Source: Escherichia coli (lineage in GTDB: Bacteria; Pseudomonadota; Gammaproteobacteria; Enterobacterales; Enterobacteriaceae). Taken from it: 64,000 nucleotides of DNA. Below the pieces are notes generated by a model. The model saw only the letters and a program-made list of their open reading frames with translations. It was not told where the DNA came from and did no database searches. Position 1 is the stretch's first letter; every line of letters begins with the position of its first letter. Positions 17,860 to 62,497 of the stretch are shown piece after piece. The position numbers were made by a program, and so were the translations under genes. The stretch is taken from the NCBI RefSeq assembly GCF_001677475.2, contig NZ_CP015229.1, one strand, 5' to 3'.

Positions 17860-18771
17860 TTATCCGGCAAGACTTACCGGTTGAGGAAATTCAGATAAGA
17901 TTTCTTGTTCCGCAAAACAGTTTTTAAATTGCCTGCGGTAATCGCTGGGCGAACAGCCGACATGGCGCAAAAACAGTTTGGCAAAGTGATCAACATTTTC
18001 ATAACCCACACGCCAGGAGATCTCTGCCTGTGATAATTCAGTATTAGTGAGTGACCATTTCGCTTCCGTCATACGCCGTTGAATAACATAGTTAATAGGG
18101 GAAATACGATACTCTTTGGTAAATTCATGGCAAATATAACTGACGCTGGCACGAAACTTTTTCGATAACTGCTCTAAAGTGATTTTTTCGCGATAGTTAT
18201 TATTCAGATAGAAAAGAATATCTTTTATCAGAACATCTTTTTTAATATATCCCTGCTCCGAACGATAAGCATTTTTAAAGTTTTCGTAGTAAAGAATTGC
18301 TAACGTATAGGCAAAGGCGTCCCATAACGAAGATGTTTGGCTATTTTTACTTTGCGGCAAAATCACACTTAGCTCATTAAATAAGGTTTTAATGACTTCT
18401 TTTCCCTGCCCTGCGGCAATTACCGGGCAAGAATGCGGTTGCAGTAGCTGATTTTCCTCAGCCCCCTGAAACTGAAAGCCGTACAGCGCACAGGTACACG
18501 TCGTTGCTGGATCGTTAACGTCAGAGGCCACCGCATGCAGCCTGCCACGTTCTATCACCACAATGTCATCGGCGTGCGCGACATATAACGAAGAATCGAT
18601 GGTAAACCTTGCTACCCCTTTCTTGACGTAAATCAACTCGGTTTCATTGTCATGAACGTGATGTCCGGACTCCCATTTTGGATCATCGCTAAATGCAAAA
18701 CGTGAAAGCCGTGGCGTTTTACCGGCGACAAACAGCGTTTCGCTGGCGTTATCAAAACAGCGTTGATACAT
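17860..18771 (-). CDS. ydiP: AraC-family transcriptional regulator
   Basis: 303-aa ORF; C-terminal AraC-type HTH; divergent from ydiQRST. Confidence 0.85.
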   Translation of the reverse strand: MYQRCFDNASETLFVAGKTPRLSRFAFSDDPKWESGHHVHDNETELIYVKKGVARFTIDSSLYVAHADDIVVIERGRLHAVASDVNDPATTCTCALYGFQFQGAEENQLLQPHSCPVIAAGQGKEVIKTLFNELSVILPQSKNSQTSSLWDAFAYTLAILYYENFKNAYRSEQGYIKKDVLIKDILFYLNNNYREKITLEQLSKKFRASVSYICHEFTKEYRISPINYVIQRRMTEAKWSLTNTELSQAEISWRVGYENVDHFAKLFLRHVGCSPSDYRRQFKNCFAEQEILSEFPQPVSLAG

Positions 18772-29276: not shown

Positions 29277-30752
<1,476 letters not shown>

Positions 30753-30775
30753 TTAAACACCAGCAAACAGGAGGG

Positions 30776-31489
30776 TTATCGCTGAACCAACGTCGTTATC
30801 TGATTTACAGGAACGGCAGGCCACAGGCATCCCTGGAGAGCATGGAAATCGAAGGGGGTAATCTGTGCCATTATTTCTGGCGTATCAATGCCCCCCGCGA
30901 TGATGCAATTGCAACATGGGGAAATTTGCGCCTGGATCGCACGAATAAACGGTTCGAAGGAGCGATGCGTGATTTGTTGCTGAATAAAACTTTTATCCAG
31001 CATGACGCGGGTGAAAAGACCATCAAAAACCGCTTTCATTGTGCTATTGCCTGCGCCCAAATTACCTAACACAAGGGGATACATTTGCGATAAGGACAAA
31101 AGATCGCGATTATCTTTTCCTTCATCGAGATGCGGGTAATTCTCATTAATCAACAGTTCAATAAACGGATATTTTAATAGTTCGCCCGCGTAATTATCCC
31201 TGTCTAATAATAATGTAGCCACTTGTGGCGTTAAATTAAGCCAGGCAAAGAGTTTATGTTGAATAAAAAAGTGTTGGCATGATTTTAGTAATTCCAACTG
31301 CTCTGAAAATAATTGCCAATGTTGCTCCTCGGTAAGTTGCGCTATAACCCGACTCGTCGGGATACGAACCGTACCATCTTCACTGGAGAAATGGGTAATT
31401 AACTCAACGCCGACAAGGTCTTGCTGGTTATCTCTTATCGGCAGGAAATAGCAATCAGAATGATAAAGATTCTCCAAAAAAATCTTCAT
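30776..31489 (-). CDS. ydiV: EAL-like anti-FlhD4C2 factor
   Basis: 237-aa ORF; degenerate EAL domain; synteny. Confidence 0.85.
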   Translation of the reverse strand: MKIFLENLYHSDCYFLPIRDNQQDLVGVELITHFSSEDGTVRIPTSRVIAQLTEEQHWQLFSEQLELLKSCQHFFIQHKLFAWLNLTPQVATLLLDRDNYAGELLKYPFIELLINENYPHLDEGKDNRDLLSLSQMYPLVLGNLGAGNSTMKAVFDGLFTRVMLDKSFIQQQITHRSFEPFIRAIQAQISPCCNCIIAGGIDTPEIMAQITPFDFHALQGCLWPAVPVNQITTLVQR

Positions 31490-31735
31490 GGTAACCGTCC
31501 CTCTCGAAGGATGTTTTTCAGTATCCGGCTAAAAGGGATGAGGCCATAAGACATAACAATTACAGAAGGAGTAACTTTCATTTGTTCCATGTTAACCACT
31601 TTTTCAGGGGTCCTTTTTTTAGATTATCCTGATTATAAACGAATAATCCATTTACGGAATTTTTGTCTGCAAAATACTACTGTATTCTGGAGTAAATTGA
31701 CGGCGATGTATCATCGCCGTCAATTTTTCGACATA

Positions 31736-32200
31736 CTAGATTCGTCTCGCCTGCCAGAAATTTTTCTGCCAATAGACATTATCAAGTGAGGAACGCATCA
31801 CTCCCTTGCTGGTAGAGGCGTGGATAAATTGGTTGTTGGTATCATAAATACCTACATGCAAACCATTTTGTCCGGAGCCCGTTTTGAAAAAGACCAGGTC
31901 ACCTGGCAGCAACTCGTCTTTATCAATTTGCGTGCCGATAGAGGCTTGTTGTTTGGTTTCACGGGGCAGCTGCAAATCGAAACGATCGCGCATCGTCACA
32001 ACCACAAATCCCGAACAGTCCACACCGCGCCGCGTCATGCCACCATAACGATACGGCGTGCCATGCCAGCTCTGTAGCTGGTCGTTCAAACCGGCAATAA
32101 CGGTAATCGAATCAGAAAGTCTGGCATTTGGCGGCGGTGCTTTATGGTGGCTACACCCGGCCAGAAACAGTGCTGTGATCAAAATAAGGCAGAAACGCAT
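31736..32200 (-). CDS. nlpC: NlpC/P60 family lipoprotein
   Basis: 154-aa ORF; lipobox LAGC; NlpC/P60 Cys (DCSGF) and His; synteny. Confidence 0.9.
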   Translation of the reverse strand: MRFCLILITALFLAGCSHHKAPPPNARLSDSITVIAGLNDQLQSWHGTPYRYGGMTRRGVDCSGFVVVTMRDRFDLQLPRETKQQASIGTQIDKDELLPGDLVFFKTGSGQNGLHVGIYDTNNQFIHASTSKGVMRSSLDNVYWQKNFWQARRI

Positions 32201-32277
32201 TCCGTACGGTTCCTCTGTTTTTTATTCTTGCATTAATTTAGCGTCGTAATTACCCGATTTTCAAGATACTAATGAAA

Positions 32278-33027
32278 TCAGATGGTCGAAATCAGCATTC
32301 TGTGACCTTCGATATCCAGACGGCGAAAATTCATCCCATAGGCCTGCGCCAGATTTGGCGGCGTGAGCACCTCTTCTCTGCGTCCACTGGCCAGCATTTT
32401 TCCACCTTTTAGCAACCACGCCCGATGCGCATGACGCAATGTGTGGTTGAGATCGTGACTGCTCATCACAATCGCCAGTCCTTGCTGACACAGCGCGCTC
32501 AGAATTTTGTCTAACGCACTTTGTTGCGCAACATCAAGACTGTTCATCGGCTCATCAAGAAGCAGCAATTGGCCTGCGGGATTGGCTTGTGGTGTGATTT
32601 GCAGCACCACCGCAGCAAGACGTACGCGTTGCCATTCACCGCCGGAAAGTTGATTGGTGCTACGTCCGAGTTTGTCATCAAGAGCCAGCGCCCCTGCGAC
32701 ATCATTCAGTAGTTCGGTACGCGTTTTATCGTGCTGATGCAATGTCAGGTAGTGCCAGACCGGCATTGCAAACGGCGGCGTCTGCTGTTGTGAAAGATAG
32801 GCGCGATGCAGCGCGAGTTTTGTTGCGGACCATGCTTCCAGTGGTTGCCCCGCGAACTGAATGCTTCCCTTACCGCTGGTCATTCCGGCCATTCGCGCCA
32901 GTAAGGTACTCTTACCCGCGCCATTCGGCCCCACCAGGTGCAGGATCTCCCCAGCCCGAACCTCGCCAGAAAGCGGCCCCAGGCGGGTAGATTCCGCAAC
33001 ATCCTGTAACTGCATCACAATAGACAT
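32278..33027 (-). CDS. btuD: vitamin B12 ABC transporter ATPase
   Basis: 249-aa ORF; Walker [10 protein letters not shown], signature LSGGEWQR. Confidence 0.95.
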
Positions 33028-33578
33028 TATTTTGCCAACGCCAGTTTAATGCTTTCCATCACAATGGGATCTTCCGGCGTCATATCCGGGGAAAAACGCT
33101 GGATGACCAATCCGTCCCTGCCAACTAAAAATTTCTCAAAATTCCATAAAATATCATCAGGGTACAGCGGTGCACGACCTTTGCTGACCATACGGGCATA
33201 GAATCCGCTCTCTTCCGGCGCGACTGCGGTCGGCGCTGCGGCAATCAATTTTTGATACAGCGGATGGCGTCCTTCGCCATTAACTTCAATCTTACTGAAC
33301 ATCGGAAACGTCACCCCCCATGTGGTGGTACAGTAAGTTTTAATCTCTTCATCGCTGCCCGGTTCTTGTTCCAGAAACTGGTTGCACGGGAATCCCAGCA
33401 CCACAAAACCACGATCGGCCCAGGCTTTCTGAATATTCTCCAACTGCTCATATTGCGGCGTTAAGCCACACTTTGAGGCGACATTGACAATCAACAGCAC
33501 ATTACCAGCGTACTTCTCCAGCGTGGTCACTTCACCGTCGATATCTTTCACTACGGTCGTCAGAATGGAATCTTGCAT
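33027..33578 (-). CDS. btuE: glutathione-peroxidase-like protein
   Basis: 183-aa ORF; GPx-like active site region; between btuC and btuD. Confidence 0.9.
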
Positions 33579-33640
33579 CGTTTCTCCTGGGTGTGGTCAG
33601 TAAAAATCTTAGCTTTTAATCATAGACCGTCTTTTTGCGG

Positions 33641-34621
33641 CTAACGTCCTGCTTTTAACAATAACCAGATAAACACCGGCGCACCTAACGTTGCGGTGAC
33701 CACGCCAATAGGCAGCTCTGCGGCAGCTAATGCCAGGCGCGCTACAACATCGGCCAGCAGCAATGCGCTCGCCCCTGCCAGCGCGCAGCCTGGAAGTAAT
33801 ACGCGATGATCGGTTAAACCACACAGCCGGAGAATATGTGGGATCACCAGACCAATAAAGCCGATAGCACCCGCCAGCGCCACACTGACGCCAACCATCC
33901 AGCCGGTCACTGCGACCAACACATTGCGCCAGAACCACAGGGGTAAACCCAGTTGCCGCGCCGAGATCTCGCCAAGTGCTAACATATTCATCGGCCTGGA
34001 CTGACAACAGATCCACAACAACACGGGGATCAATGCCAGCATCAGCCAGCTTTGCCGCCAGTCTACGCCGCCAAAACCGCCCATCATCCAGTACATCAGC
34101 TGACGCAAATCAACAGAGGTGGAAAAGTAGATAGCCCACGTCATTAGTGCGCTACAGATAATCCCTAATGCAACGCCAGCCAGCAATAACCGACTGGTCG
34201 AAAGATGACGACGGGCGAAACGTAAGAGTATTAAAGTGATGATAAGCGCGCCAGCAATCGCACACAGCCCCAGCGCCCAGTTGGGGAGTTGCCCTTGCCC
34301 AAGCAATACCGCGGCGATAAGCCCCACGCCTGCGCCATTAGAGACGCCAAGTAGTCCAGGTTCTGCCAGAGGATTTTCAAACAACGCCTGCATTACTGCG
34401 CCGGATATAGCCAGCGCCGCACCAACCAGCAATACAGCCAGCGTACGTGGCAGGCGAATTTGCCAGACGAACAGTTCGCCACGAGGAGTAAACCAGTCAC
34501 CTGGCGAGATCCATTGTTCACCGGCGCAAAGGCTTAAGAGAAGCGCCAGCAGCATCAAAACTGACAGGCATAATAACCAGCGAATATTTTGTCGCTGTTG
34601 TTGGCGGGCAAGTGTCAGCAT
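33641..34621 (-). CDS. btuC: vitamin B12 ABC transporter permease
   Basis: 326-aa multi-TM ORF; FecCD-type permease; synteny. Confidence 0.95.
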
Positions 34622-34682
34622 GGTATCCGTTCTGCTGAAGTGTCATGGCGTTGATTTTACGGTGACTCTTCGACAGTGAAAA

Positions 34683-34704
34683 GAAAAAAGGCCGCAGAGC
34701 GGCC
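34683..34704 (-). terminator. intrinsic terminator (minus strand) near left prophage boundary
   Basis: Hairpin GGCCGCTCTGCGGCC followed by T6 on the minus strand, about 110 bp downstream of the stop of ORF 34814..35344. Confidence 0.55.
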
Positions 34705-34813
34705 ATAAACACAAACAAAAATCAATAAGTTAGATAATTATCAAAGACTTACAGACACACAAAAACACAGCAAACCACAACAAATAACATAGATGTGGTC
34801 AATTTGTGGATCA

Positions 34814-35344
34814 TCATCCAACAAATTTAGCAACAAATACAGCAACCGCCGCCGTGAAAATGGTTGTGCATACTGGCACAATAATGCCACTCCAACGCCA
34901 CTTCGTATTATCATCAACCTTGTCAAACCGCCGATTCATCTCATCCATAATCTTGTCAAAGCGTTTATCCATCGCTTCGGTAAGCTCACCCTTCAGGCTG
35001 TTAATGTCTGATTTGAGCTGCTCTTTCAGGTTAGCTGTATCAGATTTAAGCTCACCTTTCAGATTCGCAATATCGCATTTAAGATCACCTTTCAGATTCG
35101 CAATGTCTGCTTTGAGCTCACCTTTAACCTCACCAACATCGGCTTTGGTTGAGAGGTTTGTAGTGCGTTCAGCAAGCGTCGCAAGGTCGTTTCTTGTTAG
35201 CGATAAATCACCTTCGAGCCGCTCAATTCGCCTTTCAAGTTTATCTGACATTCCGCCTCCACTATCACCGCCTCCCCCACCGAAAGAGTTGCCAATGTCC
35301 TCACGAATAAGGGTTATGCCATGCTCACTTTTAGCATATGCCAC
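34814..35344 (-). CDS. tail-anchored coiled-coil membrane protein with tandem 11-residue repeats (unknown function)
   Basis: 176-aa ORF; Gly-rich N-terminus, repeats DIANLKGDLKC/DIANLKGELKS/DTANLKEQLKS/DINSLKGELTE, single C-terminal TM helix; abuts upstream ORF. Confidence 0.6.
   Translation of the reverse strand: MAYAKSEHGITLIREDIGNSFGGGGGDSGGGMSDKLERRIERLEGDLSLTRNDLATLAERTTNLSTKADVGEVKGELKADIANLKGDLKCDIANLKGELKSDTANLKEQLKSDINSLKGELTEAMDKRFDKIMDEMNRRFDKVDDNTKWRWSGIIVPVCTTIFTAAVAVFVAKFVG
34993..35128. repeat. tandem ~33-bp direct repeats inside ORF 34814..35344
   Basis: Repeated units of the form CACCTTTCAGATTCGCAATnTCnnnTTTnAGnT visible in sequence (4 copies, degenerate). Confidence 0.7.
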
Positions 35345-35758
35345 TCAGATTCCCTCCCAAACTATATATCCTTTGTCTCTTGCCCAACAAACAACTGTGT
35401 GGGCTGTATATGTGGATGTGAAGCCGCAATAAGAACATGACACTTCATACCGAGTATTGTAGATGTTAATGGGCTCGTTCTCCTTGTGTATGGGAGTGAC
35501 ATATTCCCAATCATTTGAATCATCATAATCATCAAGTTCAGGGTCTGTGCCGTGAACAACCGTATGTGGAATAAACAAATCTAGGCGCCCACACGAGAGA
35601 CAAGAGGTTCTGGCTCCTCTATCTTTAAGGAATTGAATAAATAATTTGGGCGAAATCTGTTGCAGAACCTGCAAATGCCCACGTTCATTATCATTAAGAG
35701 ACCTGTCTGCATATGGAAAATCATCAAATTTAAGAGGCTTCATATAAGGCATCTCCAA
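35345..35758 (-). CDS. zinc-ribbon-containing protein of unknown function
   Basis: 137-aa ORF with CLSCG...CSYCG Cys pairs; overlaps int 3' end and abuts the next ORF (operon-like); alternative start 35743. Confidence 0.5.
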   Translation of the reverse strand: MEMPYMKPLKFDDFPYADRSLNDNERGHLQVLQQISPKLFIQFLKDRGARTSCLSCGRLDLFIPHTVVHGTDPELDDYDDSNDWEYVTPIHKENEPINIYNTRYEVSCSYCGFTSTYTAHTVVCWARDKGYIVWEGI

Positions 35759-36722
35759 GGGGATTAAATCTCACCGCATCCTGCAGGTAATCCGGCGCAA
35801 GATGGGCATAAATCATCGTTGTCTGAATCTTTGCGTGCCCCAGAATTTTCTGGAGCGTCAGAATATTGCCGCCGTTCATCATGAAATGACTGGCGAAGGT
35901 GTGGCGCAGCGCATGAACAGCCTGGCCGTCAGGAACATCAGGTGCGACCGTTTTGATGACATCGCGAACCAATGGATAATCCAGCGTCGGAAACACCAGT
36001 TTCCCGCCCCGTTTTTTGATCTTTTCAAACAGGCTTTCAGAAATAGGAACGGTACGGTTTTTGCTGTTCTTCGTTTTTGAAAAAGTGATTCGACAATGAA
36101 GAACACGGCGCTGCTCCAGTGCCGCTACCTCGCCCCATCGCGCCCCGGTCGACAGAAGGATTTCGACAGCCAGCCGTTCATCGGGATTTTCAGCCAGTGC
36201 ATCCAGCAACTGAACACATTCAGACTTACTCAGATATCCCATTTCGCGCTCGTTAACCTTCATTCCTTTAAGGCCTTGAACGGGGTTATCGTTAAGAAAA
36301 TGGCCGGATGAGATGAGTGCGGTAAACATCGCGCTTAACGCCCCAATCTCTCGATTTATGGTGCTGGGCTGTATCCCCTGCTCTATCCTGGACACACGTA
36401 GCTCGGTGAGCATCGTTGTATTAAGTTTATGCACGCACGGGTCATCCATTGCCTCACTCAAGCGCAGCAATTTAAGGCGCGTGTTATGCCCTGACTTCAT
36501 TAGCTGGCCGTGGTATTTCCACCACAAGTCAATAAGCACCGACAGCGGACGGCGATCAATGGAGTTTCCTTTCCACTCATTGTTATGCTGTTGCGCCAGC
36601 ACCCACCGCTCATATAAAACTGCATCCGATTTCGTTTTAAATTTTTTGCGAATGCGTTTGCCTTTACGCCCCTCCGGGCGCATGTCAAGAAGATACCCTC
36701 CCGGAATTGATTTTATGCTCAT
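35730..36722 (-). CDS. tyrosine integrase, P2 Int-like
   Basis: ORF 35730..36872; start set at internal Met (MSIKSIPGGYLLDMRPEGRKGKRIRKKF) by resemblance to P2 Int N-terminus; C-terminal catalytic region TGARWGE...HALRHTFASHFMMNGG...LGH...IYAH. Confidence 0.9.
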   Translation of the reverse strand: MSIKSIPGGYLLDMRPEGRKGKRIRKKFKTKSDAVLYERWVLAQQHNNEWKGNSIDRRPLSVLIDLWWKYHGQLMKSGHNTRLKLLRLSEAMDDPCVHKLNTTMLTELRVSRIEQGIQPSTINREIGALSAMFTALISSGHFLNDNPVQGLKGMKVNEREMGYLSKSECVQLLDALAENPDERLAVEILLSTGARWGEVAALEQRRVLHCRITFSKTKNSKNRTVPISESLFEKIKKRGGKLVFPTLDYPLVRDVIKTVAPDVPDGQAVHALRHTFASHFMMNGGNILTLQKILGHAKIQTTMIYAHLAPDYLQDAVRFNPLGDALYEAS

Positions 36723-36771: not shown

Positions 36772-37083
36772 TTAGCCGGGCTGTGTGCCAGTCTTGCGGG
36801 GTTTTTGAGAAGGCGATGTGCTTTTTGGCCCATCAGGGGAGAGAGACGGACTGATCTGCCCAGCAGCCTCATTTGTTTCGTTACTCATCAACCACGTGGT
36901 GTATTTTTTAAAGTTCGGATGCATTGTGATTTTCAGTAAAACCTCCGTCCCCACACCTCTAATACCAGTCTCATATTGCTTAACTGTACCAACCGCAATA
37001 CCTATTGAATCCGCGAACTTTGCCTGGCTAAGTCCCTCAGATTCTCGAATTGCTTTTAGCTTCTTTGATATCTCTATTGACAT
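36772..37083 (-). CDS. P2 C-type immunity repressor (HTH, no peptidase domain)
   Basis: ORF 36772..37155; start set at MSIEISKK (ATG 37081-37083, AGG RBS); HTH plus motif KYTTWLMSNE...GQISPSL resembling P2 C. Confidence 0.75.
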   Translation of the reverse strand: MSIEISKKLKAIRESEGLSQAKFADSIGIAVGTVKQYETGIRGVGTEVLLKITMHPNFKKYTTWLMSNETNEAAGQISPSLSPDGPKSTSPSQKPRKTGTQPG

Positions 37084-37178
37084 GGTGTGCACCTGAATAC
37101 TATATTGGTTATCAGTTGAGTACCACTTGACGCCACAAAAAGCCACAAATAGCACCAGATTGAATAGGTTATCACATC
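37084..37178. promoter_or_regulatory. divergent early promoter/operator region (repressor vs cox-like operon)
   Basis: Intergenic between divergent C-like and cox-like genes; GGTTATCA repeated at 37107..37114 and 37167..37174; TTGACG -35-like element. Confidence 0.5.
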
Positions 37179-37457
37179 ATGGCAAAAGTCCTGAACACAT
37201 ACGAACAAGCGGATTTTGAGCGTTTGGCGGCGTTCTACCCATACCGTGATGAGCATGGGTTACCTGTGCTTGAAGAAAGCCTGGAAGATTACGCGAAACG
37301 CACGAATCAAAGCATTCTTGCGGTAAGAAGGCAGGCCGACAGATCAGTAATCCCCGTCACCCAAGAAGGAAGAAACACAAAACGCAAAGTAAACCTTTTC
37401 GCAATATTCCTGAAAACCATCAGGAGCGCAGAGAAATACGTGCAGATGACAAAATAA
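37179..37457 (+). CDS. Cox/Apl-position early protein (putative excisionase/transcriptional switch)
   Basis: 92-aa ORF, first gene of rightward early operon opposite the repressor; function assigned by position only. Confidence 0.4.
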   Translation: MAKVLNTYEQADFERLAAFYPYRDEHGLPVLEESLEDYAKRTNQSILAVRRQADRSVIPVTQEGRNTKRKVNLFAIFLKTIRSAEKYVQMTK

Positions 37458-40378: not shown

Positions 40379-40768
40379 ATGATTGACGCTCATGACTTCA
40401 CAAGATGGGTGCGCACACAGGACACCCGTCTGGCTCCCGTTCTTCAGGGATTATTTGATCTTTACATCCGTGGTCGTGACAACAGAGCACGCACTACAAA
40501 ACCGGAGAATGCGGACACCCTTTATTTCACAGTAGACGACTGCTACCGCGTGGACTTCACACCACACGGGCTGGCGTTGCACTGCCTGACACCACACGGC
40601 GAATCACTGCTGGCGTATTACGACTCCCCGGCCTCCGTATTTGCGGCAATGCTGGCGCATCGCACTGCTGGCGGGTGTGCCTCGCTGAGTGAATACACCG
40701 CTGAATTTAACCGCCTTTCCGCCATCTTCTCGCAGGAGTGGCAGCGCGTGACGGGATACCAGCCATGA
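40379..40768 (+). CDS. phage early protein, unknown function
   Basis: 129-aa ORF; stop overlaps gpA start (ATGA). Confidence 0.5.
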   Translation: MIDAHDFTRWVRTQDTRLAPVLQGLFDLYIRGRDNRARTTKPENADTLYFTVDDCYRVDFTPHGLALHCLTPHGESLLAYYDSPASVFAAMLAHRTAGGCASLSEYTAEFNRLSAIFSQEWQRVTGYQP

Positions 40769-43605
40769 GTGAGTTTGCATGGAGCTGGAATGAACCACGG
40801 CCAGCCATTGATCCGGCCAGATTTACGGAGCGCAGGCAGGAAACTGAAACCGACCTGCAACGCGCCATCCGTTACTACCTTGAGGCAGACAAAAGGGCAC
40901 AGGAAGAACAGGAAGCGAAGGAAGAAGCCTTTTTCGCACAATCCACCGTGGGTAAAAAACTCATGGCATCCCTTGAGGAAGCCGGACAGCGTGAAAAGCT
41001 GGCACAGAGCATCATCAGTAAGCGCCGGGCAACAGAACAAGACACGGTAGCCCGTGCCTTTGCCACACTAAAGGCACTACCTGTTTATCTGCGTGAACCA
41101 CTGAGCCGCCACCTCTCTTTCCTGCGCAAAAAACAGGAAGCCGATCGCCGGAAAGGCAAAAAGAGCTGGCAGGCGGAACGCTATGCACGCGGAACCCTGC
41201 GCAAAATATTCGAACGTCTGGACCGCACCGACAGCCGCTGGCTGACACCGGGTTATCGCGCCCTTGCCGGACGCGAACGCCTGGACGATTTGCTTTACCT
41301 GCCGCAGCTCAACAAACACCAGATACAGACGCTGGCCACCATGACAGCGGCGATGTTCAGCAGCACCTTCGAAAAACTCTGCGATGGCTTTGGCGCGACT
41401 GATGGCGAGCTGACCATGGATGTAACGCTGAAGGCGTATCAGATGCTGGCCCGCATGGCGTTACACCTGCACGCCATGCCTCCGCATTATGACGTACTGA
41501 CAACAGACAAAGACCGGAGGAACGAACCAGACACAGAACTGCTGCCGGGCGCAATCCTTCGCCTGACCTGTGCGGAATGGTGGAAACGCAAACTGTGGCT
41601 GTTACGTTGCGAGTGGCGGGAAGAACAACTCCGAGCCGCCTGTCTGGTTTCCAGAAAAACATCGCCCTATCTGAGCCAGGACGCGTTAAGCGAGTTTCGC
41701 GCACAGCGCGAGAAAACACGCGATTTCCTGAAAAGTTTCATGCTGGAAAATGAAGACGGGTTCACGATTGATCTCGAGACGGTGTATTACGCGGGAGTAA
41801 GTAACCCGGTTCACCGTAAGGCAGAAATGATGGCCACCATGAAGGGACTGGAACTTCTGGCCGAAGCCCGTGGCGACAGAGCGGTGTTTCTGACCGTCAC
41901 CTGCCCGTCAAAATACCACGCAACAACGGAGAACGGTCATCCGAACCCCAAATGGAACGGGGCCACCATGCGCGACTCCAGCGATTACCTGGTTAACACG
42001 TTTTTTGCGGCGGTCCGCAAAAAACTGAACCGCGACGGCCTGCGCTGGTATGGCATCCGCACGGTGGAGCCTCACCATGACGGCACTGTGCACTGGCATA
42101 TGATGGTCTTTGCACATCCGGACGAGATTGAAACCATCGTGTCCCACGTCTGCGATATTGCCATTCAGGAGGACCGCCACGAGCTGGGCGATGACATAAC
42201 TCCGCGTTTTAAGGCGGAGTATGTCGACGGCTCAAAAGGCACACCAACCAGCTACATCGCCACCTACATCGGAAAGAACTTGGACAGCCGCGCCGTGGAT
42301 GGCATCGACCCGAAAACGGGCAAGCCACGCGTTGACCACGAAACCGGAAAATCAATGGCCGAGAGCGTGGAGCGCGCCATCGGCTGGGCGCGCCTTCACC
42401 GGGTCCGTCAGTTCCAGTTCTTTGGCATCCCCTCCCGTCAGGTGTGGCGTGAACTGCGCCGCCTTGCCAGCCAGATGGCACGCAATCCGGAAGGCCCGCA
42501 ACGGCTGAAAGATGATGCAATGGATGCGGTACTCGCTGCCGCCGATGCCGGGTGTTTTGCCACCTACATTGAAAAACAGGGTGGCGTGCTTGTTCCACGC
42601 AAGGACTACCTGATTCGCACCGCCTACGACCTCGCAGATGAGCTGAACGATTACGGCGAACAGAGCGTACAGATTTACGGGATCTGGTCACCACTCATCG
42701 GGGAATCCTCCCGTGTGTGCACGCATCCGGATAACTGGAAGTTGGTAAGACGTAAACCAGAACCGGAAGACAACGCCCACGAAAATGGTTTTGACCTTCA
42801 GGGCGGCCCTGCCGCCCCTTGGACTCGTGGCAATAACTGTCCCCGTGTACAGGAAACGGACAATAACGGGACAGAACTGCCGGAAGAACGGCCAGCACCG
42901 TGGCCGCAGCTCCCTGACGGCGTTGAAGTGAACGAATGGATGCGCTCACTGAAACAGCACGAACGCCGGGCGCTGATGCGTTCGCTTCGTGACAAACAGG
43001 CAAAAAACAGCAGTGATGAAATGCAGAGCTGGACACAGAGCCGCAAACAGCAGCGGCCTTTGCCTGATAACCACGAATTACTCGCTAAAGAATGGCGGGA
43101 GTCTGCTGAATCTCTCGGCCTGCATATCGGTGAACAACAGATGCAGCACCTGTTACGGGGCGGCAGCCTGTACGTTGACGGCAGCATCATTGCACCGCAG
43201 GGATTTGAAATTGTACGCAAACCGGATACCCGCCCGGACAGCCGAATCACGCAGCTCTGGCAGCGCCTGAGCCGTAATCATGGCGTAAGCAGCACGGAGA
43301 TCCGCCATAACCCGGTCGCCAGCTATCTGGCACAGCTGGGGGCATCAGACCCTGAAGTCGCCGCACGCCTGGCATCCACACTTCAGCAGGACCAGAACAC
43401 CATGAAAACACCCGTTACCGTGCTTTCTGACATGCTGCGCGCCATCCGCGACGCAGAGCACGCACAGAGAATCAGTGAAACCACTGAACGCGCCCGCCGC
43501 AAAGCAGACCTGCTGCGGGGTGGCCTGACCAGTGGAAACAAAAAACAGACAGAAACGGGACTCATGAATCCCGTAAATGAGCAAAAAACGCGCAGCGATA
43601 TATGA
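40765..43605 (+). CDS. rolling-circle replication initiator, P2 gpA-like, with long C-terminal extension
   Basis: ORF 40738..43605; start set at ATG 40765 (MSEFAWSW); HWHMMVF and ATYIGKN motifs typical of gpA-family nicking proteins; 946 aa. Confidence 0.8.
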   Translation: MSEFAWSWNEPRPAIDPARFTERRQETETDLQRAIRYYLEADKRAQEEQEAKEEAFFAQSTVGKKLMASLEEAGQREKLAQSIISKRRATEQDTVARAFATLKALPVYLREPLSRHLSFLRKKQEADRRKGKKSWQAERYARGTLRKIFERLDRTDSRWLTPGYRALAGRERLDDLLYLPQLNKHQIQTLATMTAAMFSSTFEKLCDGFGATDGELTMDVTLKAYQMLARMALHLHAMPPHYDVLTTDKDRRNEPDTELLPGAILRLTCAEWWKRKLWLLRCEWREEQLRAACLVSRKTSPYLSQDALSEFRAQREKTRDFLKSFMLENEDGFTIDLETVYYAGVSNPVHRKAEMMATMKGLELLAEARGDRAVFLTVTCPSKYHATTENGHPNPKWNGATMRDSSDYLVNTFFAAVRKKLNRDGLRWYGIRTVEPHHDGTVHWHMMVFAHPDEIETIVSHVCDIAIQEDRHELGDDITPRFKAEYVDGSKGTPTSYIATYIGKNLDSRAVDGIDPKTGKPRVDHETGKSMAESVERAIGWARLHRVRQFQFFGIPSRQVWRELRRLASQMARNPEGPQRLKDDAMDAVLAAADAGCFATYIEKQGGVLVPRKDYLIRTAYDLADELNDYGEQSVQIYGIWSPLIGESSRVCTHPDNWKLVRRKPEPEDNAHENGFDLQGGPAAPWTRGNNCPRVQETDNNGTELPEERPAPWPQLPDGVEVNEWMRSLKQHERRALMRSLRDKQAKNSSDEMQSWTQSRKQQRPLPDNHELLAKEWRESAESLGLHIGEQQMQHLLRGGSLYVDGSIIAPQGFEIVRKPDTRPDSRITQLWQRLSRNHGVSSTEIRHNPVASYLAQLGASDPEVAARLASTLQQDQNTMKTPVTVLSDMLRAIRDAEHAQRISETTERARRKADLLRGGLTSGNKKQTETGLMNPVNEQKTRSDI

Positions 43606-43681: not shown

Positions 43682-44641
43682 ATGAAAATTTGTATCGACG
43701 ACGGCTCCACCAACATCAAGCTGGCATGGACTGAGAACGGCGAACGCCGCAACGCCATCAGCCCGAACAGCTTCAAGTCGGAATGGTCTGCGCCGTTCGG
43801 TGGCACGCAGCCCGCGAACTACATGCTTGATGGCGTGCGCTATGGTTTTGATCCGGTCAGCGATCGCTTTGTCCAGACGACCGACACGCAATACCAGTAC
43901 AGCGATGTGAATGTCATTGCCATTCATCACGCGCTGGTCAAATCAGGCATCACGCCACAGGAGGTGGATGTGGTTGTCACCCTGCCACTGAGCGAGTATT
44001 TCGACACAAACGCACAGCCGGACATGGCCAACATCAACCGCAAAAAAGCGAACGTTATGCGCCCGGTGGAGTACCAGAACGGCGAAGCATTCACTATCCG
44101 TAACGTGCGGGTTATGCCTGAATCCATTCCGGCTGGCTTTAAGGCACTGGCTGACATGAGTCCGTTTGAATCCCTGCTGATTGTAGATTTGGGCGGAACC
44201 ACGCTGGATGTGGCAAAGGTTCAGGGGCAACTGGCAGGTATCAGCCAGGTGTTTTGCGATCCACACGTAGGCGTTTCTCTGATGGCCGATGCCGTACTGT
44301 CGGTGATGGCCACTAACGGTATGCGCACCAGTCACCACATCGCCAATACCATTATCGAACATCGCCATAATGAAGCCTGGCTGCGCCAGCACATCCACAA
44401 TGACGCGCATTACGCCAGCCTGATGGAGGTTATTCGTGAAAAGGAAGAAACACTGAAACAACGCGTGATCCGCGCGCTGGCGGGTTTTTCGGGTTACGGG
44501 CGGGTGATGGTTGTCGGTGGAGGGGCGGAGATTGTGGCACCCGCTATCCGCGAAGCCTGCGGAGTTCATGCGACTTTCATCGCGGACGGGGTGCCACAGT
44601 TTGCTCTGGTTAATGGGCTGTACGCAATGGACAAGGAGTAA
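43682..44641 (+). CDS. actin-like ATPase, ParM/StbA family
   Basis: 319-aa ORF; motifs DDGSTNIKL, SPNSFK, YSDVNVIAIHHAL, MPESIPAG, DLGGTTLD, VVGGGAEI align with plasmid R1 ParM as I recall it. Confidence 0.85.
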   Translation: MKICIDDGSTNIKLAWTENGERRNAISPNSFKSEWSAPFGGTQPANYMLDGVRYGFDPVSDRFVQTTDTQYQYSDVNVIAIHHALVKSGITPQEVDVVVTLPLSEYFDTNAQPDMANINRKKANVMRPVEYQNGEAFTIRNVRVMPESIPAGFKALADMSPFESLLIVDLGGTTLDVAKVQGQLAGISQVFCDPHVGVSLMADAVLSVMATNGMRTSHHIANTIIEHRHNEAWLRQHIHNDAHYASLMEVIREKEETLKQRVIRALAGFSGYGRVMVVGGGAEIVAPAIREACGVHATFIADGVPQFALVNGLYAMDKE

Positions 44642-44645
44642 ACCA

Positions 44646-44957
44646 ATGACGACACCAACCAGACGGATAAGTTTCTATCTGAAGCCTGCGGCCGTCAAGA
44701 ACGAAAGCGAAGCATGCGCCTGGCTGGACAGCCTTACACCAGAAGCCCGCAAAAGCGGCCAACGCGTGGCTTTTCTGGCCGGGCTGGCACTTCTGAAAAT
44801 GAATCCGGCAGAGGCTTACCGACTGGCTGCATGGGCTGACGATGAGGCGTTATCAGTGACACAAACCAGGACAGAATGCCCCGCGTCACAGCCAGTATCA
44901 ACCGCACAGATAACCAGTCAGATGGCCGGAAATATCCGGGCGTTATTTCCCGAATAA
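44646..44957 (+). CDS. ParR-like centromere-binding/repressor protein
   Basis: ATG 44646 with GGAG RBS, 103 aa; RRISFYLKP...AWLDSLTPEARKSGQRVAFLAGLAL resembles R1 ParR N-terminal RHH region; immediately downstream of parM-like gene. Confidence 0.7.
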   Translation: MTTPTRRISFYLKPAAVKNESEACAWLDSLTPEARKSGQRVAFLAGLALLKMNPAEAYRLAAWADDEALSVTQTRTECPASQPVSTAQITSQMAGNIRALFPE

Positions 44958-44962
44958 CACAA

Positions 44963-44990
44963 CATCAGGGCGCATCCGCCCTGATGACTT
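44963..44990 (+). terminator. putative terminator after parR-like gene
   Basis: 10-bp stem CATCAGGGCG/CGCCCTGATG with 4-nt loop, followed by short T-rich stretch. Confidence 0.4.
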
Positions 44991-45020
44991 TAATCCGGGA
45001 ACATAAACAAGGGGGACACA

Positions 45021-45356
45021 ATGCAACACATTGACAGAGAAAAAGCGCAGCGACTGATTGAGCGAATGGAAGCGCTGGCGAAAGAAGAAAATGTCAACAT
45101 CCAAAAAATAGCTGAATGTGGCCAGATAGTTCTTCGTCGTGAAAAAGACATCAAGCAACTGATGTCTGGCGAAATCAGCAAAACATGGACTTCAGGCAAG
45201 AAGACGATTTATTGCAGCTTCTGCAATAAATCCCAGCACGAAGTCATAAAGGTGATTGCCGGACCGTCTGTTTACATCTGCAATGAGTGCGTGGATTTGT
45301 GCAATGAAATTATCAGAAGAGAAGTGACAGACCATGAAGAAAAAACGCATGAATGA
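45021..45356 (+). CDS. ClpX-type C4 zinc-binding-domain protein (novel N-terminal helical region fused to ClpX-like ZBD)
   Basis: 111-aa ORF, GGGGGA RBS; residues [38 protein letters not shown] closely match E. coli ClpX N-domain (about 32 of 39 residues by my recollection); no AAA+ module. Confidence 0.8.
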
Positions 45357-45943
45357 CGAATTTGACGGCTTTTAATTTTATCGGGGCACACTGTCTCCCC
45401 CCGCACGAGGAAAACACGATGAAAAAATACGAATACATGCTAATGAAAGAAGCACTGCGGGCTGGTCTGGCTCCCTGTCCTGTATCCGTAGAAGCTGTTG
45501 TTGGGAACACGATTTTCCGAACGCTGCGAAATCGCGTATCCGTGAAGATGATTCACCAACCACCCAAATCTACCAGCATGATCTATCTGCCGCTGCCCGA
45601 GGCTATCAAACTTATGCGTTCGCTGAAATTTGCGATTTGGATGCAGACACAACTCAACAAAGCGGTGCAAAACACCTTCGTTAAGAAACTGATGCCGGAG
45701 CTTGCTGCCAGATGTGCAAAATGTACCAGACCCGCACTTCAATTTGATCTGTCATTGATTCAACAAGCTACGGAGGCAGAACTGTACCGCCTGTCACCTC
45801 TCCATGATGTTCACACGGAAGCCTCAGAAATGTTCCGGCTCATGTTTCAATTTAATTTTGCCGTTCGACGCACACGCGTTCAGGTCAATCGCATGATGCA
45901 GGCGCAGGAAGAGCTGACGCAACACAAAGGAGGCAACCAGTGA
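45353..45943 (+). CDS. hypothetical protein, translationally coupled to ZBD gene
   Basis: ATG 45353 overlaps upstream stop (ATGA); alternative start ATG 45416 with GAGGAA RBS; no recognisable motif. Confidence 0.55.
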
Positions 45944-46464
45944 GCAAGATTGACTATCAGGCATTACGCGAACGCTATTCACCTGCGCCAGTACCGAAAT
46001 GCCCTATTTGCGGCGAGGAAATGTCAATTCAGCGAATATCTGGAGCACAGGTTGTTTATGCCTGCTCCGGTTATGGTGATGATGGAGATTTCAAAATTGG
46101 TCGAACTCTTGCCGACGAACATTATGAAAAATCGCGCGTAACAGTGTTGGATGTCGGGGATCCTGAAGTATTGGCGCTACTTGATTGGCTGGAAACTAAA
46201 GACAACCGAATCGCTGAACTGGAAAAAATCGCCACTGACTATGCACTTAAATTCCAGAAAGCACAGGACGCATTAAAGCATGCCGCTTTGCTGCATAGCC
46301 GGACGGCGCAACAAACAAATAATTTTGCAGTATCGCTTCCGGACATAAGCGAATATTTCATTAATGACGTATTTCAGCCCTTGCGATACGAGCGGGATGT
46401 TGAAAGAGCCATCATAAAGGCTGGCGGAAAAGCATTGTGGCAGGAGAAACACGACGACAGATAA
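45940..46464 (+). CDS. hypothetical protein with N-terminal Cys-rich (zinc-ribbon-like) segment
   Basis: GTG start overlapping upstream stop (GTGA) with AGGAGG RBS; CPICGEE...YACSG; 174 aa. Confidence 0.55.
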   Translation: MSKIDYQALRERYSPAPVPKCPICGEEMSIQRISGAQVVYACSGYGDDGDFKIGRTLADEHYEKSRVTVLDVGDPEVLALLDWLETKDNRIAELEKIATDYALKFQKAQDALKHAALLHSRTAQQTNNFAVSLPDISEYFINDVFQPLRYERDVERAIIKAGGKALWQEKHDDR

Positions 46465-46516
46465 AAATAACACCTGATCTCCCTCAAACCAGGGCGATAA
46501 TCGCGCATCGCCCTGC

Positions 46517-55206: not shown

Positions 55207-55357
55207 TACTCCCACATGGGGAAATCTCGGTATATGGGGCGACCGCCTTCTGGATGCACTGGAAACCTGTAACGCGGATAAACGGGCCATTGAATTACTG
55301 GAACAGCGCAGGCTGCAACGACTGAACAACGAGGACAACAACCATGCTGAAAACTGA
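55067..55357 (+). CDS. spanin outer-membrane lipoprotein subunit (LysC/Rz1-like)
   Basis: ORF 55037..55357; MNAPTLCLTLVLLTGC signal with lipobox Cys; Pro-rich; overlaps LysB 3' end in another frame. Confidence 0.55.
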   Translation: MNAPTLCLTLVLLTGCAGTQNAPLPAPSVRLIPQTLTIPVTPPPFPDTPTWGNLGIWGDRLLDALETCNADKRAIELLEQRRLQRLNNEDNNHAEN

Positions 55358-55811
55358 TTCCCTGCGTGAAGCCATGACCCGTTCATGCCGATGGTGTCAG
55401 GCCAACCCGGAAAAATTCACCATTTTCGTGGAGAGCGGCAACATTGAAACGACAGGAGAAACCCCATCGTTTGTTTACCGCTATCAGATGGTGATGTTTG
55501 TCATGGATTACGCCGGGGAGCTGGACGACCTCACGCTGCCGCTGCTGGCGTGGTTATCCGAAAATCAGCCACAGTTGTTGCTCAACCCGGAGCGTAATCA
55601 GGACATCAAATTCTCCGCCGTTATCAATGACGATGACAGCGCCGATCTCCTGTTTACGCTCCCCCTGCGGGAACGCGTTCGCATCACGCGCAGCAGTCAG
55701 GGCACACCGCAGGCAGAACACCTGCCGGAGCCAAAACCACGCCTGCCATCTTCCGAAGGCGACTGGTCGCATGTATTCCGGGATGTGACGTGGGGTGAAA
55801 GCGATGGATAA
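55344..55811 (+). CDS. tail completion protein, P2 gpR-like
   Basis: 155-aa ORF; position and size as P2 R. Confidence 0.55.
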   Translation: MLKTDSLREAMTRSCRWCQANPEKFTIFVESGNIETTGETPSFVYRYQMVMFVMDYAGELDDLTLPLLAWLSENQPQLLLNPERNQDIKFSAVINDDDSADLLFTLPLRERVRITRSSQGTPQAEHLPEPKPRLPSSEGDWSHVFRDVTWGESDG

Positions 55812-60367: not shown

Positions 60368-60808
60368 ATGAATTACATATATTCCGCGACTACAAACTCT
60401 TTCTATCCGCTGGAGATGAAAGAGGATTACACTCAAGCTGACTCATGGCCAGATGATGCTGTTGAAGTTGATGAGCAAGTGTATATTGAGTTTTCCGGAT
60501 TACCGCCGAAAGGAAAAATCCGTATCGCTGGAGAAAATGGTTTTCCTGCATGGTCTGAAATTCCACCACCAACACATGAGGAACAAATTGCTGCAGCCGA
60601 ATTGGAGAAGCAGCAATTGATTAATCAGGCCAACGATTATATGAACAGTAAACAATGGCCTGGTAAAGCGGCTATTGGTCGTCTGAAAGGTGAGGAACTG
60701 GCGCAATATAATTTGTGGCTGGATTATCTGGACGCACTGGAACTGGTTGATACCTCCAGTGCTCCAGATATTGAATGGCCTACGCCTCCGGCAGTTCAGG
60801 CCAGATGA
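60368..60808 (+). CDS. tail fibre assembly protein (Tfa, gpG-like), currently expressed orientation
   Basis: 146-aa ORF; C-terminal motif LWLDYLDALELVDTSSAPDIEWP shared with inverted paralog. Confidence 0.7.
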   Translation: MNYIYSATTNSFYPLEMKEDYTQADSWPDDAVEVDEQVYIEFSGLPPKGKIRIAGENGFPAWSEIPPPTHEEQIAAAELEKQQLINQANDYMNSKQWPGKAAIGRLKGEELAQYNLWLDYLDALELVDTSSAPDIEWPTPPAVQAR

Positions 60809-61376
60809 CATCCGGCGCGGTGCTGGTATCTGTTGCCGTCACCGCGTCAATGTAATCCAGCACAGCGTTAAGTCTGGTTGTTTCTGCCTGCGTCAGTTTA
60901 CGTCCGGCCTGTAATTTCAGCTGAATCAGACTAATGGAAGCCATTGCTGCATCAATCAGTGACTGGCGCTGTGCTTCTGCCGTTTCTACTGCGGCACCGT
61001 GTTGTGCCTCAGTATCTGTCACCCATTTCTCACCATCCCATTTATCATATGGCGTTAACGGTGAAAGCGTGACATAACCGTTTTTGATGGCACCGATATA
61101 ATCCACTGTAACAGCAGCACCATTTTCGATTGAGTAAACAGTCTCATTGCGATGGTCTTCTTCATGGCTCCATCCCTTACCTGTAAATACTGCCACTCTT
61201 CCCGGAATGTTTTTGCCAGGGTCAATTCCAGTGGAACAGGCGGGCATACTTACGCCAGTATTAATATATTCATCAGACCAGCCCGTATACTCAGATGTTT
61301 CAGCATCATAATAAAAACAACGCATATCGCCCGGCACTGTAGCCAGTCCATTTTCATCAAAAATTGGGGTCATCAT
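60780..61376 (-). CDS. alternative tail fibre assembly protein (Tfa'), inverted orientation
   Basis: 198-aa ORF convergent with tfa; C-terminal motif LNAVLDYIDAVTATDTSTAPDVIWP. Confidence 0.65.
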   Translation of the reverse strand: MMTPIFDENGLATVPGDMRCFYYDAETSEYTGWSDEYINTGVSMPACSTGIDPGKNIPGRVAVFTGKGWSHEEDHRNETVYSIENGAAVTVDYIGAIKNGYVTLSPLTPYDKWDGEKWVTDTEAQHGAAVETAEAQRQSLIDAAMASISLIQLKLQAGRKLTQAETTRLNAVLDYIDAVTATDTSTAPDVIWPELPEA

Positions 61377-61816
61377 TTAGCCCTCACCAGAAAGTTAAAT
61401 GCAATATTTCGCGGTCTGACGGCAACAAAATTCACACCATCACCCACAGAGTTACTGGTGAAATTAAATCGTGAAAATCCTGGCTGATTTCCGGCGATAC
61501 CATCATGAAAATTAATTGCGTGGCCCGCACCATCGCCTATATTCCCGGCAAACTGAGAAAAGTTTGTAGCTGCCTGCCAGCTTAATAATTCGCGACCACC
61601 GTCTACACCTCGCCCGTCATCCCAGATACGAATGAAATCACCGCGGGCTTCAGGTAATACCAGCGAAGGAAACACTTTCGCCAGCACAGGGTAATCAGTG
61701 GCAGAAAATTTCGCCCCGTTGAACTTCAAAAACACCATACCGGACCAGCTGTCGATTACAGTATTTGGCATTGCCGCGGAGGGCCAGAAGAACGGAACGC
61801 CAATAGCTGGAGTACC
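61373..61816 (-). CDS. alternative tail-fibre C-terminal segment (promoterless; fused to H constant part after inversion)
   Basis: Open frame 61373..61870 on minus strand runs through right crossover site; encodes LGEG at the junction, matching LGLGE at the left site in H. Confidence 0.6.
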   Translation of the reverse strand, partial: GTPAIGVPFFWPSAAMPNTVIDSWSGMVFLKFNGAKFSATDYPVLAKVFPSLVLPEARGDFIRIWDDGRGVDGGRELLSWQAATNFSQFAGNIGDGAGHAINFHDGIAGNQPGFSRFNFTSNSVGDGVNFVAVRPRNIAFNFLVRAK

Positions 61817-61842
61817 TTCTCCCAAACCAACGTTTAAGAAAA
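61817..61842. promoter_or_regulatory. invertase crossover site (right)
   Basis: TTCTCCCAAACCAACGTTTAAGAAAA, imperfect palindrome resembling gix/hix; inverted repeat of site at 59981..60006. Confidence 0.65.
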
Positions 61843-61897
61843 TGCAGAGATTACGGCTAACTGGCATCATCCCCGGTTTTTATTCAGGGGATCCATC

Positions 61898-62497
61898 ATG
61901 CTTATTGGCTATGTCCGCGTATCAACAAATGACCAGAATACAGAATTGCAGCGTAACGCGCTGGAGTGCGCAGGATGTGAACTGATTTTTGAAGATAAAA
62001 TCAGCGGAACGAAATCAGCCAGACCGGGATTGAAAAAACTACTCAGAACGCTATCAGAAGGAGATACGCTGGTTGTCTGGAAGCTGGACAGACTGGGCAG
62101 AAGTATGAAACACCTGATCACGCTTATTGAGGAATTGCGGGAAAAAGGGGTTAATTTCCGTAGTCTGACGGACAGCATCGACACATCAACACCCATGGGG
62201 CGTTTCTTTTTTCACGTCATGGGGGCTTTAGCCGAAATGGAACGTGAATTAATTGTAGAGCGTACACTGGCCGGACTGGCAGCAGCACGCGCACAAGGAC
62301 GCATTGGCGGACGTCGCCCGAAGTTGACAAAAGAACAACACGAGCAAATAGCGAGGCTGATTAAAAACGGTCATGACAGGAAACAACTGGCGATCATTTA
62401 CGACATCGGCATATCGACGATTTATCGCTATCACCCTGCAGGCGATATACAGGCTGAAGAAACAACCAGGCAGACTCAGGAAAATGAAAACCGCTAA
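61898..62497 (+). CDS. serine DNA invertase, Pin/Gin/Hin/Cin family
   Basis: 199-aa ORF; N-terminal catalytic motif MLIGYVRVSTNDQ, resolvase domain, C-terminal HTH; adjacent to invertible segment. Confidence 0.9.
   Translation: MLIGYVRVSTNDQNTELQRNALECAGCELIFEDKISGTKSARPGLKKLLRTLSEGDTLVVWKLDRLGRSMKHLITLIEELREKGVNFRSLTDSIDTSTPMGRFFFHVMGALAEMERELIVERTLAGLAAARAQGRIGGRRPKLTKEQHEQIARLIKNGHDRKQLAIIYDIGISTIYRYHPAGDIQAEETTRQTQENENR

Follow-up and report, generated by a model that had tools for sequence, protein, structure and literature searches.

The insertion of a P2-like prophage between btuC and ihfA is already on record for Escherichia coli SE11, in which Oshima et al. (2008, DNA Res 15:375; PMC2608844, Table 2) placed PP_SE11-4 at 1,928,706-1,964,507 with a 25-nt duplication; the attachment site and its repeat have thus been in print since 2008 and hold nothing surprising for a specialist. 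The interval itself is described as containing the ihfA-btuC terminator at this locus in Salmonella and E. coli (PMC8942017), and the consensus tgTGGaCa has been published for the arm sites of P2-type integrases (PMC3448106). The window analysed here, the whole 64,000-nucleotide stretch of E. coli DNA, contains a prophage that belongs with PP_SE11-4 by its btuC-ihfA insertion, the 25-nt core that is duplicated in SE11 and its integrase lineage. The two also share a P2-like organisation, an int gene with 98.8% DNA identity and an attL arm with 96.7% identity; in contrast, they are mosaic or differ in the cassette between attL and int, the immunity part at 36879-37139, the early genes, the tail-fibre segments and the cargo that lies between gpA and portal.

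With P2 and Wphi, the prophage shares a heterobivalent tyrosine integrase with an Int_N domain, an intergenic target that is not a tRNA gene, the attL-int-C-early operon layout, and P2-type paired arm repeats about 190 bp apart across the core, with IHF-consensus sites between core and arm repeats. It departs from them in core and attB, in an Int that is only 48.6-48.9% identical to those of P2 and Wphi, in cargo of about 0.9 kb that separates int from the arm repeats, just past which int ends in the P2 record, and in a protein at the cox position that matches no curated Cox family. A P2-like prophage of Salmonella enterica (GCA_011285225.1, our locus L052) has a similar arrangement, with repressor, Int, a zinc-ribbon gene and a small partner gene followed by btuC-btuE-btuD; its Int is 82% identical, and the core hairpin, an IHF-consensus site and the arm repeats lie at the same positions. 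The hairpin differs in the loop only (GGCCGCAATGCGGCC versus GGCCGCAGAGCGGCC), and the cassette allele is a different one.

The attachment core and the host side of the insertion

Altogether, our results support a model whereby a P2-like prophage was inserted by its own P2-family integrase into a 25-bp attB that coincides with the terminator of ihfA, leaving attR in front of an intact ihfA; we put the probability of this reading at about 0.93. In this model, the attP core would recombine with the identical 25-bp attB core and the core would thereby be duplicated, with one copy beside btuC as attL and the other, roughly 7 kb past the window and directly before ihfA, as attR, where the expected order is ...GGTTATTG followed by AAAGAAAAAAGGCCGCAGAGCGGCC and TTTTTAGTTAGATCAGATTACTCG (the end and stop codon of ihfA). 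For the intasome, an assembly like that of P2 would draw on the arm repeats at 34794-34812, the IHF sites within 34720-34751 and their counterparts across the core. Since hairpin and T-tail lie entirely inside the core, ihfA would keep an identical terminator at attR, and the attL copy may stop the C-int-cargo transcript ahead of btuC. For annotation, this would mean that ihfA has been displaced by a prophage of roughly 36-38 kb and not lost, that the att core can be assigned to the base, and that the ihfA terminator and the region upstream of btuC should both stay intact.

The host side of the insertion is defined by comparison with K-12, in which the site is unoccupied. Here btuC (33641-34621, minus strand; taken from the ORF list and collinear with K-12 b1711) is followed on the minus strand by btuE and then btuD, and the equivalent minus-strand order in K-12 is pheS-pheT-ihfA-btuC-btuE-btuD with a gap of 100 bp between ihfA and btuC. 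Window positions 1-29469 are collinear with K-12 from sufD to selO at 98.1% identity, and blastn with the K-12 DNA from selO to btuC gives 98.5% over 29469-34704 and breaks off exactly at 34704, the end of the 25-bp core; the identity runs to ...AAAAAAGGCCGCAGAGCGGCC and is followed by unrelated DNA. The host part (1-34704) is fully collinear with K-12, with no further insertion in it. The core and the 59 bp between it and the btuC ATG are still host sequence, and phage DNA begins at 34705 at the latest, 83 bp beyond that ATG. A sigma-70-like promoter match upstream of btuC (TTTTCA-17-TAAAAT, 34654-34682, minus strand; a weak match, with 9 of 12 positions in a consensus scan) is a putative promoter, and since it lies on host-derived DNA it would have been kept after integration.

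The first-pass annotation had pointed to the K-12 order in which pheS-pheT-ihfA adjoin btuC, had seen no ihfA in the window and had described btuC as followed by phage-type genes and an integrase. These statements agree with what we found: queries with ihfA and pheT gave zero matches in the 64 kb, the integrase gene occupies 35730-36722 on the minus strand and the prophage extends from 34705. The distance of about 100 bp that it gave between btuC and the phage genes needs adjustment: phage DNA starts no more than 83 bp past the ATG, and 34814 is the end of the first phage ORF.

The att core is the 25-bp sequence AAAGAAAAAAGGCCGCAGAGCGGCC at 34680-34704, which is the attL copy, is identical to K-12 attB and occurs once in the window, with 0 copies expected by chance. 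It is the stretch common to attL, to attR of the relatives and to K-12 attB when the three are aligned in register. In two complete genomes with the same integrase, CP180607, which shares the junction region at 99% identity, and SE11, a copy of these 25 bp stands at either end of the prophage as a direct repeat. In both genomes, the second copy lies at the far prophage end and leads directly into the ihfA stop codon, with ihfA-pheT-pheS intact. The copies in SE11 start at record positions 1,928,706 and 1,964,508 and so reproduce the published boundaries of PP_SE11-4 and its 25-nt duplication.

Read on the minus strand (34704-34680), the core consists of GGCCGCTCTGCGGCC, a hairpin with a 6-bp stem made up entirely of GC pairs (34704-34690), and TTTTTTCTTT, a T-tail (34689-34680), and it is recognised as an intrinsic terminator both by a terminator scan and by folding, with z = -3.3 against shuffles for the fold that contains the hairpin. 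On this basis, the 25-bp core is the predicted intrinsic terminator of ihfA in unoccupied genomes; the copy in the window lies downstream of the int and cargo genes. The earlier reading of the left junction (34622-34810) as containing a minus-strand terminator and attL holds for both elements. Of the A-rich tract that it thought might include attL, the A-run within the core is the T-tail of the terminator and the longer A-rich stretch at 34705-34790 is phage arm.

Site occupancy puts the junction in a wider context. Among about 5425 complete E. coli genomes with a match, the K-12 ihfA-btuC junction is uninterrupted in 5120 and non-contiguous in about 305; the attL junction of the window (at least 80% of 186 bp) is found in 303 genomes, or about 6%, and its integrase gene in 298, in all of them on the chromosome. 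Carriers include O157:H7, O55:H7, O103, O111, O145, O26 and O104:H4 strains, and in all three occupied genomes sampled the piece on the ihfA side opens with the first base of the core. Because 303 attL junctions face 298 int genes, site and integrase go together, as fits site-specific integration, and the first-pass placing of the attachment site in or near the ihfA-btuC interval is supported. We weighed against these data the alternative, raised in that annotation, that ihfA is missing through a strain-specific rearrangement or deletion in which the integrase had no part, with phage DNA beside btuC by coincidence. Its sole point is that attR and ihfA lie outside the 64-kb window, whereas a breakpoint that matches to the base the end of a core duplicated in relatives, the recurrence of one junction that tracks the integrase gene almost 1:1 and the full collinearity of the left 34.7 kb with K-12 make it exceedingly improbable.

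Another alternative accepts entry at the btuC-ihfA site and holds that the element is now a decayed or truncated remnant that has lost its right end or attR and, with it, excision. Int is indeed incomplete in part of the lineage, as in 60 of the 298 int-bearing genomes less than 80% of the gene is left, among them O111 strains in which int is truncated against a DUF4761 gene, and some genomes have IS insertions in the junction or integrase region. Neither a free-phage nor an excised attP form was found in IMG/VR or among INPHARED phage records, and excision of the prophage is putative. Decay of the copy in the window is countered by its genes for integrase, repressor, gpA, portal, terminase, head, lysis, baseplate and fibres: each is a full-length ORF, and they come in the order of P2. 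We consider a remnant unlikely. Insertion of a P2-like prophage by its own integrase at the ihfA terminator is the reading that we follow below.

Integrase, attP arms and lysogeny genes

The integrase (35730-36722, minus strand) is a P2-family tyrosine recombinase of 330 aa with an arm-binding domain (PF24624 Int_N, E = 1.6e-28) and a Phage_integrase catalytic domain (PF00589), and the tyrosine recombinase residues R195, H270, R273, H296 and Y305 can be read in an alignment. No close int or attP was found among INPHARED phage records, where the best match was a Klebsiella record with 56.5% protein identity.

Between core and integrase, the phage arm carries candidate elements of a P2-type attP. 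Two predicted IHF-consensus sites, WATCAANNNNTTR, lie at 34720-34732 and 34739-34751 on the plus strand; the 64-kb window has four such matches in all, two of them these sites beside the core. A putative pair of P2-type integrase arm repeats, TGTGGTCA and TGTGGATC, is found by pattern match at 34794-34812 (plus strand), with 11 bp from start to start; the pattern is unique in the window, with 0.06 occurrences expected. On the other arm, seen in relatives only, one IHF-consensus match accompanies the repeats TGTGGACA and CGTGGAAC. Direct repeats of the tgTGGaCa type are therefore present on both attP arms, on the int-side arm in the window and on the other arm in relatives, and the reconstructed attP spans about 190 bp; in the P2 record, either arm has a pair of ATGTGGAC, with about 200 bp from one pair to the other. 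Binding of Int and IHF to these elements, the position of the crossover within the core and the function of the terminator are all predictions.

Upstream of int lies the gene for a C-type immunity repressor of 103 aa with an HTH_3 domain (phrog_147; 36772-37083, minus strand, ATG at 37083). The segment 36879-37139, with the operator/promoter region and the coding part for the repressor N-terminus, differs from both CP180607 and SE11, although int and the early genes on either side keep 88-99% identity; this divergence points to another type of immunity carried by the same integration module. Directed toward the early operon, a strong promoter match (TTGACA-18-TATATT, 37077-37106, plus strand; 11 of 12 consensus positions) occupies the position of P2 Pe and, by analogy with the organisation of P2, may act as its equivalent. 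The first early gene (37179-37457, plus strand) encodes a 92-aa protein (phrog_11533) that lies at the cox position and has no match in Pfam or NCBIfam; from its position only, the product would be the excisionase. Further downstream, a replication endonuclease of the P2 gpA type is encoded at 40738-43605 on the plus strand (PF05840, E = 1.5e-129).

A variable gene pair between attL and int

The space between the arm repeats and int holds two minus-strand genes. Gene A (34814-35344) starts with GTG and encodes 176 aa (phrog_9415, function unknown) with a Gly-rich N-terminus, coiled-coil repeats of 11 residues and a C-terminal hydrophobic stretch that we read as a membrane helix; a CCDC90/DUF1640-like match is weak and falls under the Pfam cutoff. 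Gene B (35345-35752) encodes 135 aa (phrog_4293) with two CxxCG motifs resembling a zinc ribbon; the GTG of gene A comes immediately after its stop codon. Neither protein has a match above cutoff in Pfam or NCBIfam, and PADLOC applied to ten ORFs returned coiled-coil noise only for gene A and nothing for the nine others, and thus no known defence family.

We compared this cassette across 44 other loci with the same attL, in 43 of which int was found. The distance from core to int falls into five classes of about 519, 798, 931, 1029 and 1160 bp, the window belonging to the class of 1029 bp, and four of the five classes encode diverged alleles of one and the same gene pair. In these alleles, the CxxCG protein has about 120-166 aa and is 25-28% identical between alleles, with the four Cys residues invariant, and its Gly-rich coiled-coil partner is translationally coupled and ends in a hydrophobic tail. 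A profile search yielded 52 protein clusters, of which those with names are all "hypothetical", come from Enterobacterales and Aeromonas and have no Pfam domain; in each of the three relatives whose context was examined (Salmonella, Providencia and Aeromonas), the genes are att- or int-proximal in P2-like prophages.

Both genes of the module point the same way as the C-int operon, so that expression in the lysogen is conceivable. It is tempting to speculate that the slot at 34814-35752 might be an undescribed cargo hotspot of P2-like phages and that the module might be a new phage-exclusion system or another system of lysogenic conversion, a proposal that we regard as tentative and rather doubtful. 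This variable two-gene cassette downstream of int is the only lead of wider interest at the locus.

Prophage body and extent

The window includes the left approximately 29.3 kb of the prophage (34705-64000), which matches the annotated P2-like prophages of CP180607 and SE11 at 95-97% DNA identity. Its lysogeny and early genes are followed by portal and terminase, head, lysis, baseplate and tail-fibre genes, and the window ends inside the tape-measure gene, so that of the two prophage boundaries attL lies within it. The order is that of P2, with int, C, the early operon and gpA, then portal and terminase genes divergent from scaffold, capsid, small terminase, head completion, lysis, baseplate and fibres, and the P2-like prophages of the relatives are annotated with P2-family capsid, GPO scaffold and gpM. 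Gene order and similarity make 34705-64000 the left portion of a P2-like (Peduoviridae) prophage, which belongs to a known lineage as one of its mosaic members.

Because the point matching the window end lies about 7.7 kb from attR in CP180607 and IMG/VR prophage contigs with an Int 100% identical to that of the window are about 36.3 kb long, attR is expected near window-equivalent position 71,000, some 7 kb past the window end. In IMG/VR, core plus left arm is matched 42 times, always as attL next to btuC sequence, and right arm plus core four times, always as attR next to ihfA sequence; an exact search with the reconstructed attP gave 0 matches. An exact scan of a species-representative genome collection for the attR junction and the last 60 window bases gave no match, and none of the complete E. 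coli genomes is identical to the window, the best reaching 99.0% over the junction and integrase region and none covering more than 94% of 39001-64000.

Several further segments vary or stand out within this backbone. Directly after gpA, at 43682-44957, a ParM-type actin-like segregation ATPase (StbA_N and ParM domains) is encoded together with a Plasmid_stab_B partner; the pair sits in the cargo region between gpA and portal, is also present in the CP180607 prophage and is a partition system of plasmid type, here in a P2-like phage that integrates. In the same cargo region, a further variable stretch at 44958-46516 has three ORFs found in neither CP180607 nor SE11, of 111 aa (with a ClpX-type C4 zinc finger), 196 aa (without a family) and 174 aa (Ead/Ea22-like), none with a PADLOC match. 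The relatives carry extra genes of their own: a Hok/Gef-family toxin gene lies between ogr and attR (18512-18652 in our locus L003, 36605-36745 in L005), the interval between gpD and ogr has an additional gene (DUF3800 in CP180607, hypothetical in SE11), and in the CP180607 prophage a 1.9-kb DUF6645 gene (L002, 40864-42741) separates the lysis genes from the tail-completion genes. The DUF6645 gene is absent from the window (compare 55292-55386), and its position is a further point of cargo insertion in this phage lineage.

Finally, at 60368-62497, the gene for a serine invertase (61898-62497; Resolvase and HTH_7 domains) adjoins two oppositely oriented ORFs, of which 60780-61376 has a tail-fibre assembly domain and 61373-61870 is without a family match. 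The segment is probably a tail-fibre inversion module, which would point to a switching of host range of the kind seen in Mu and P1.
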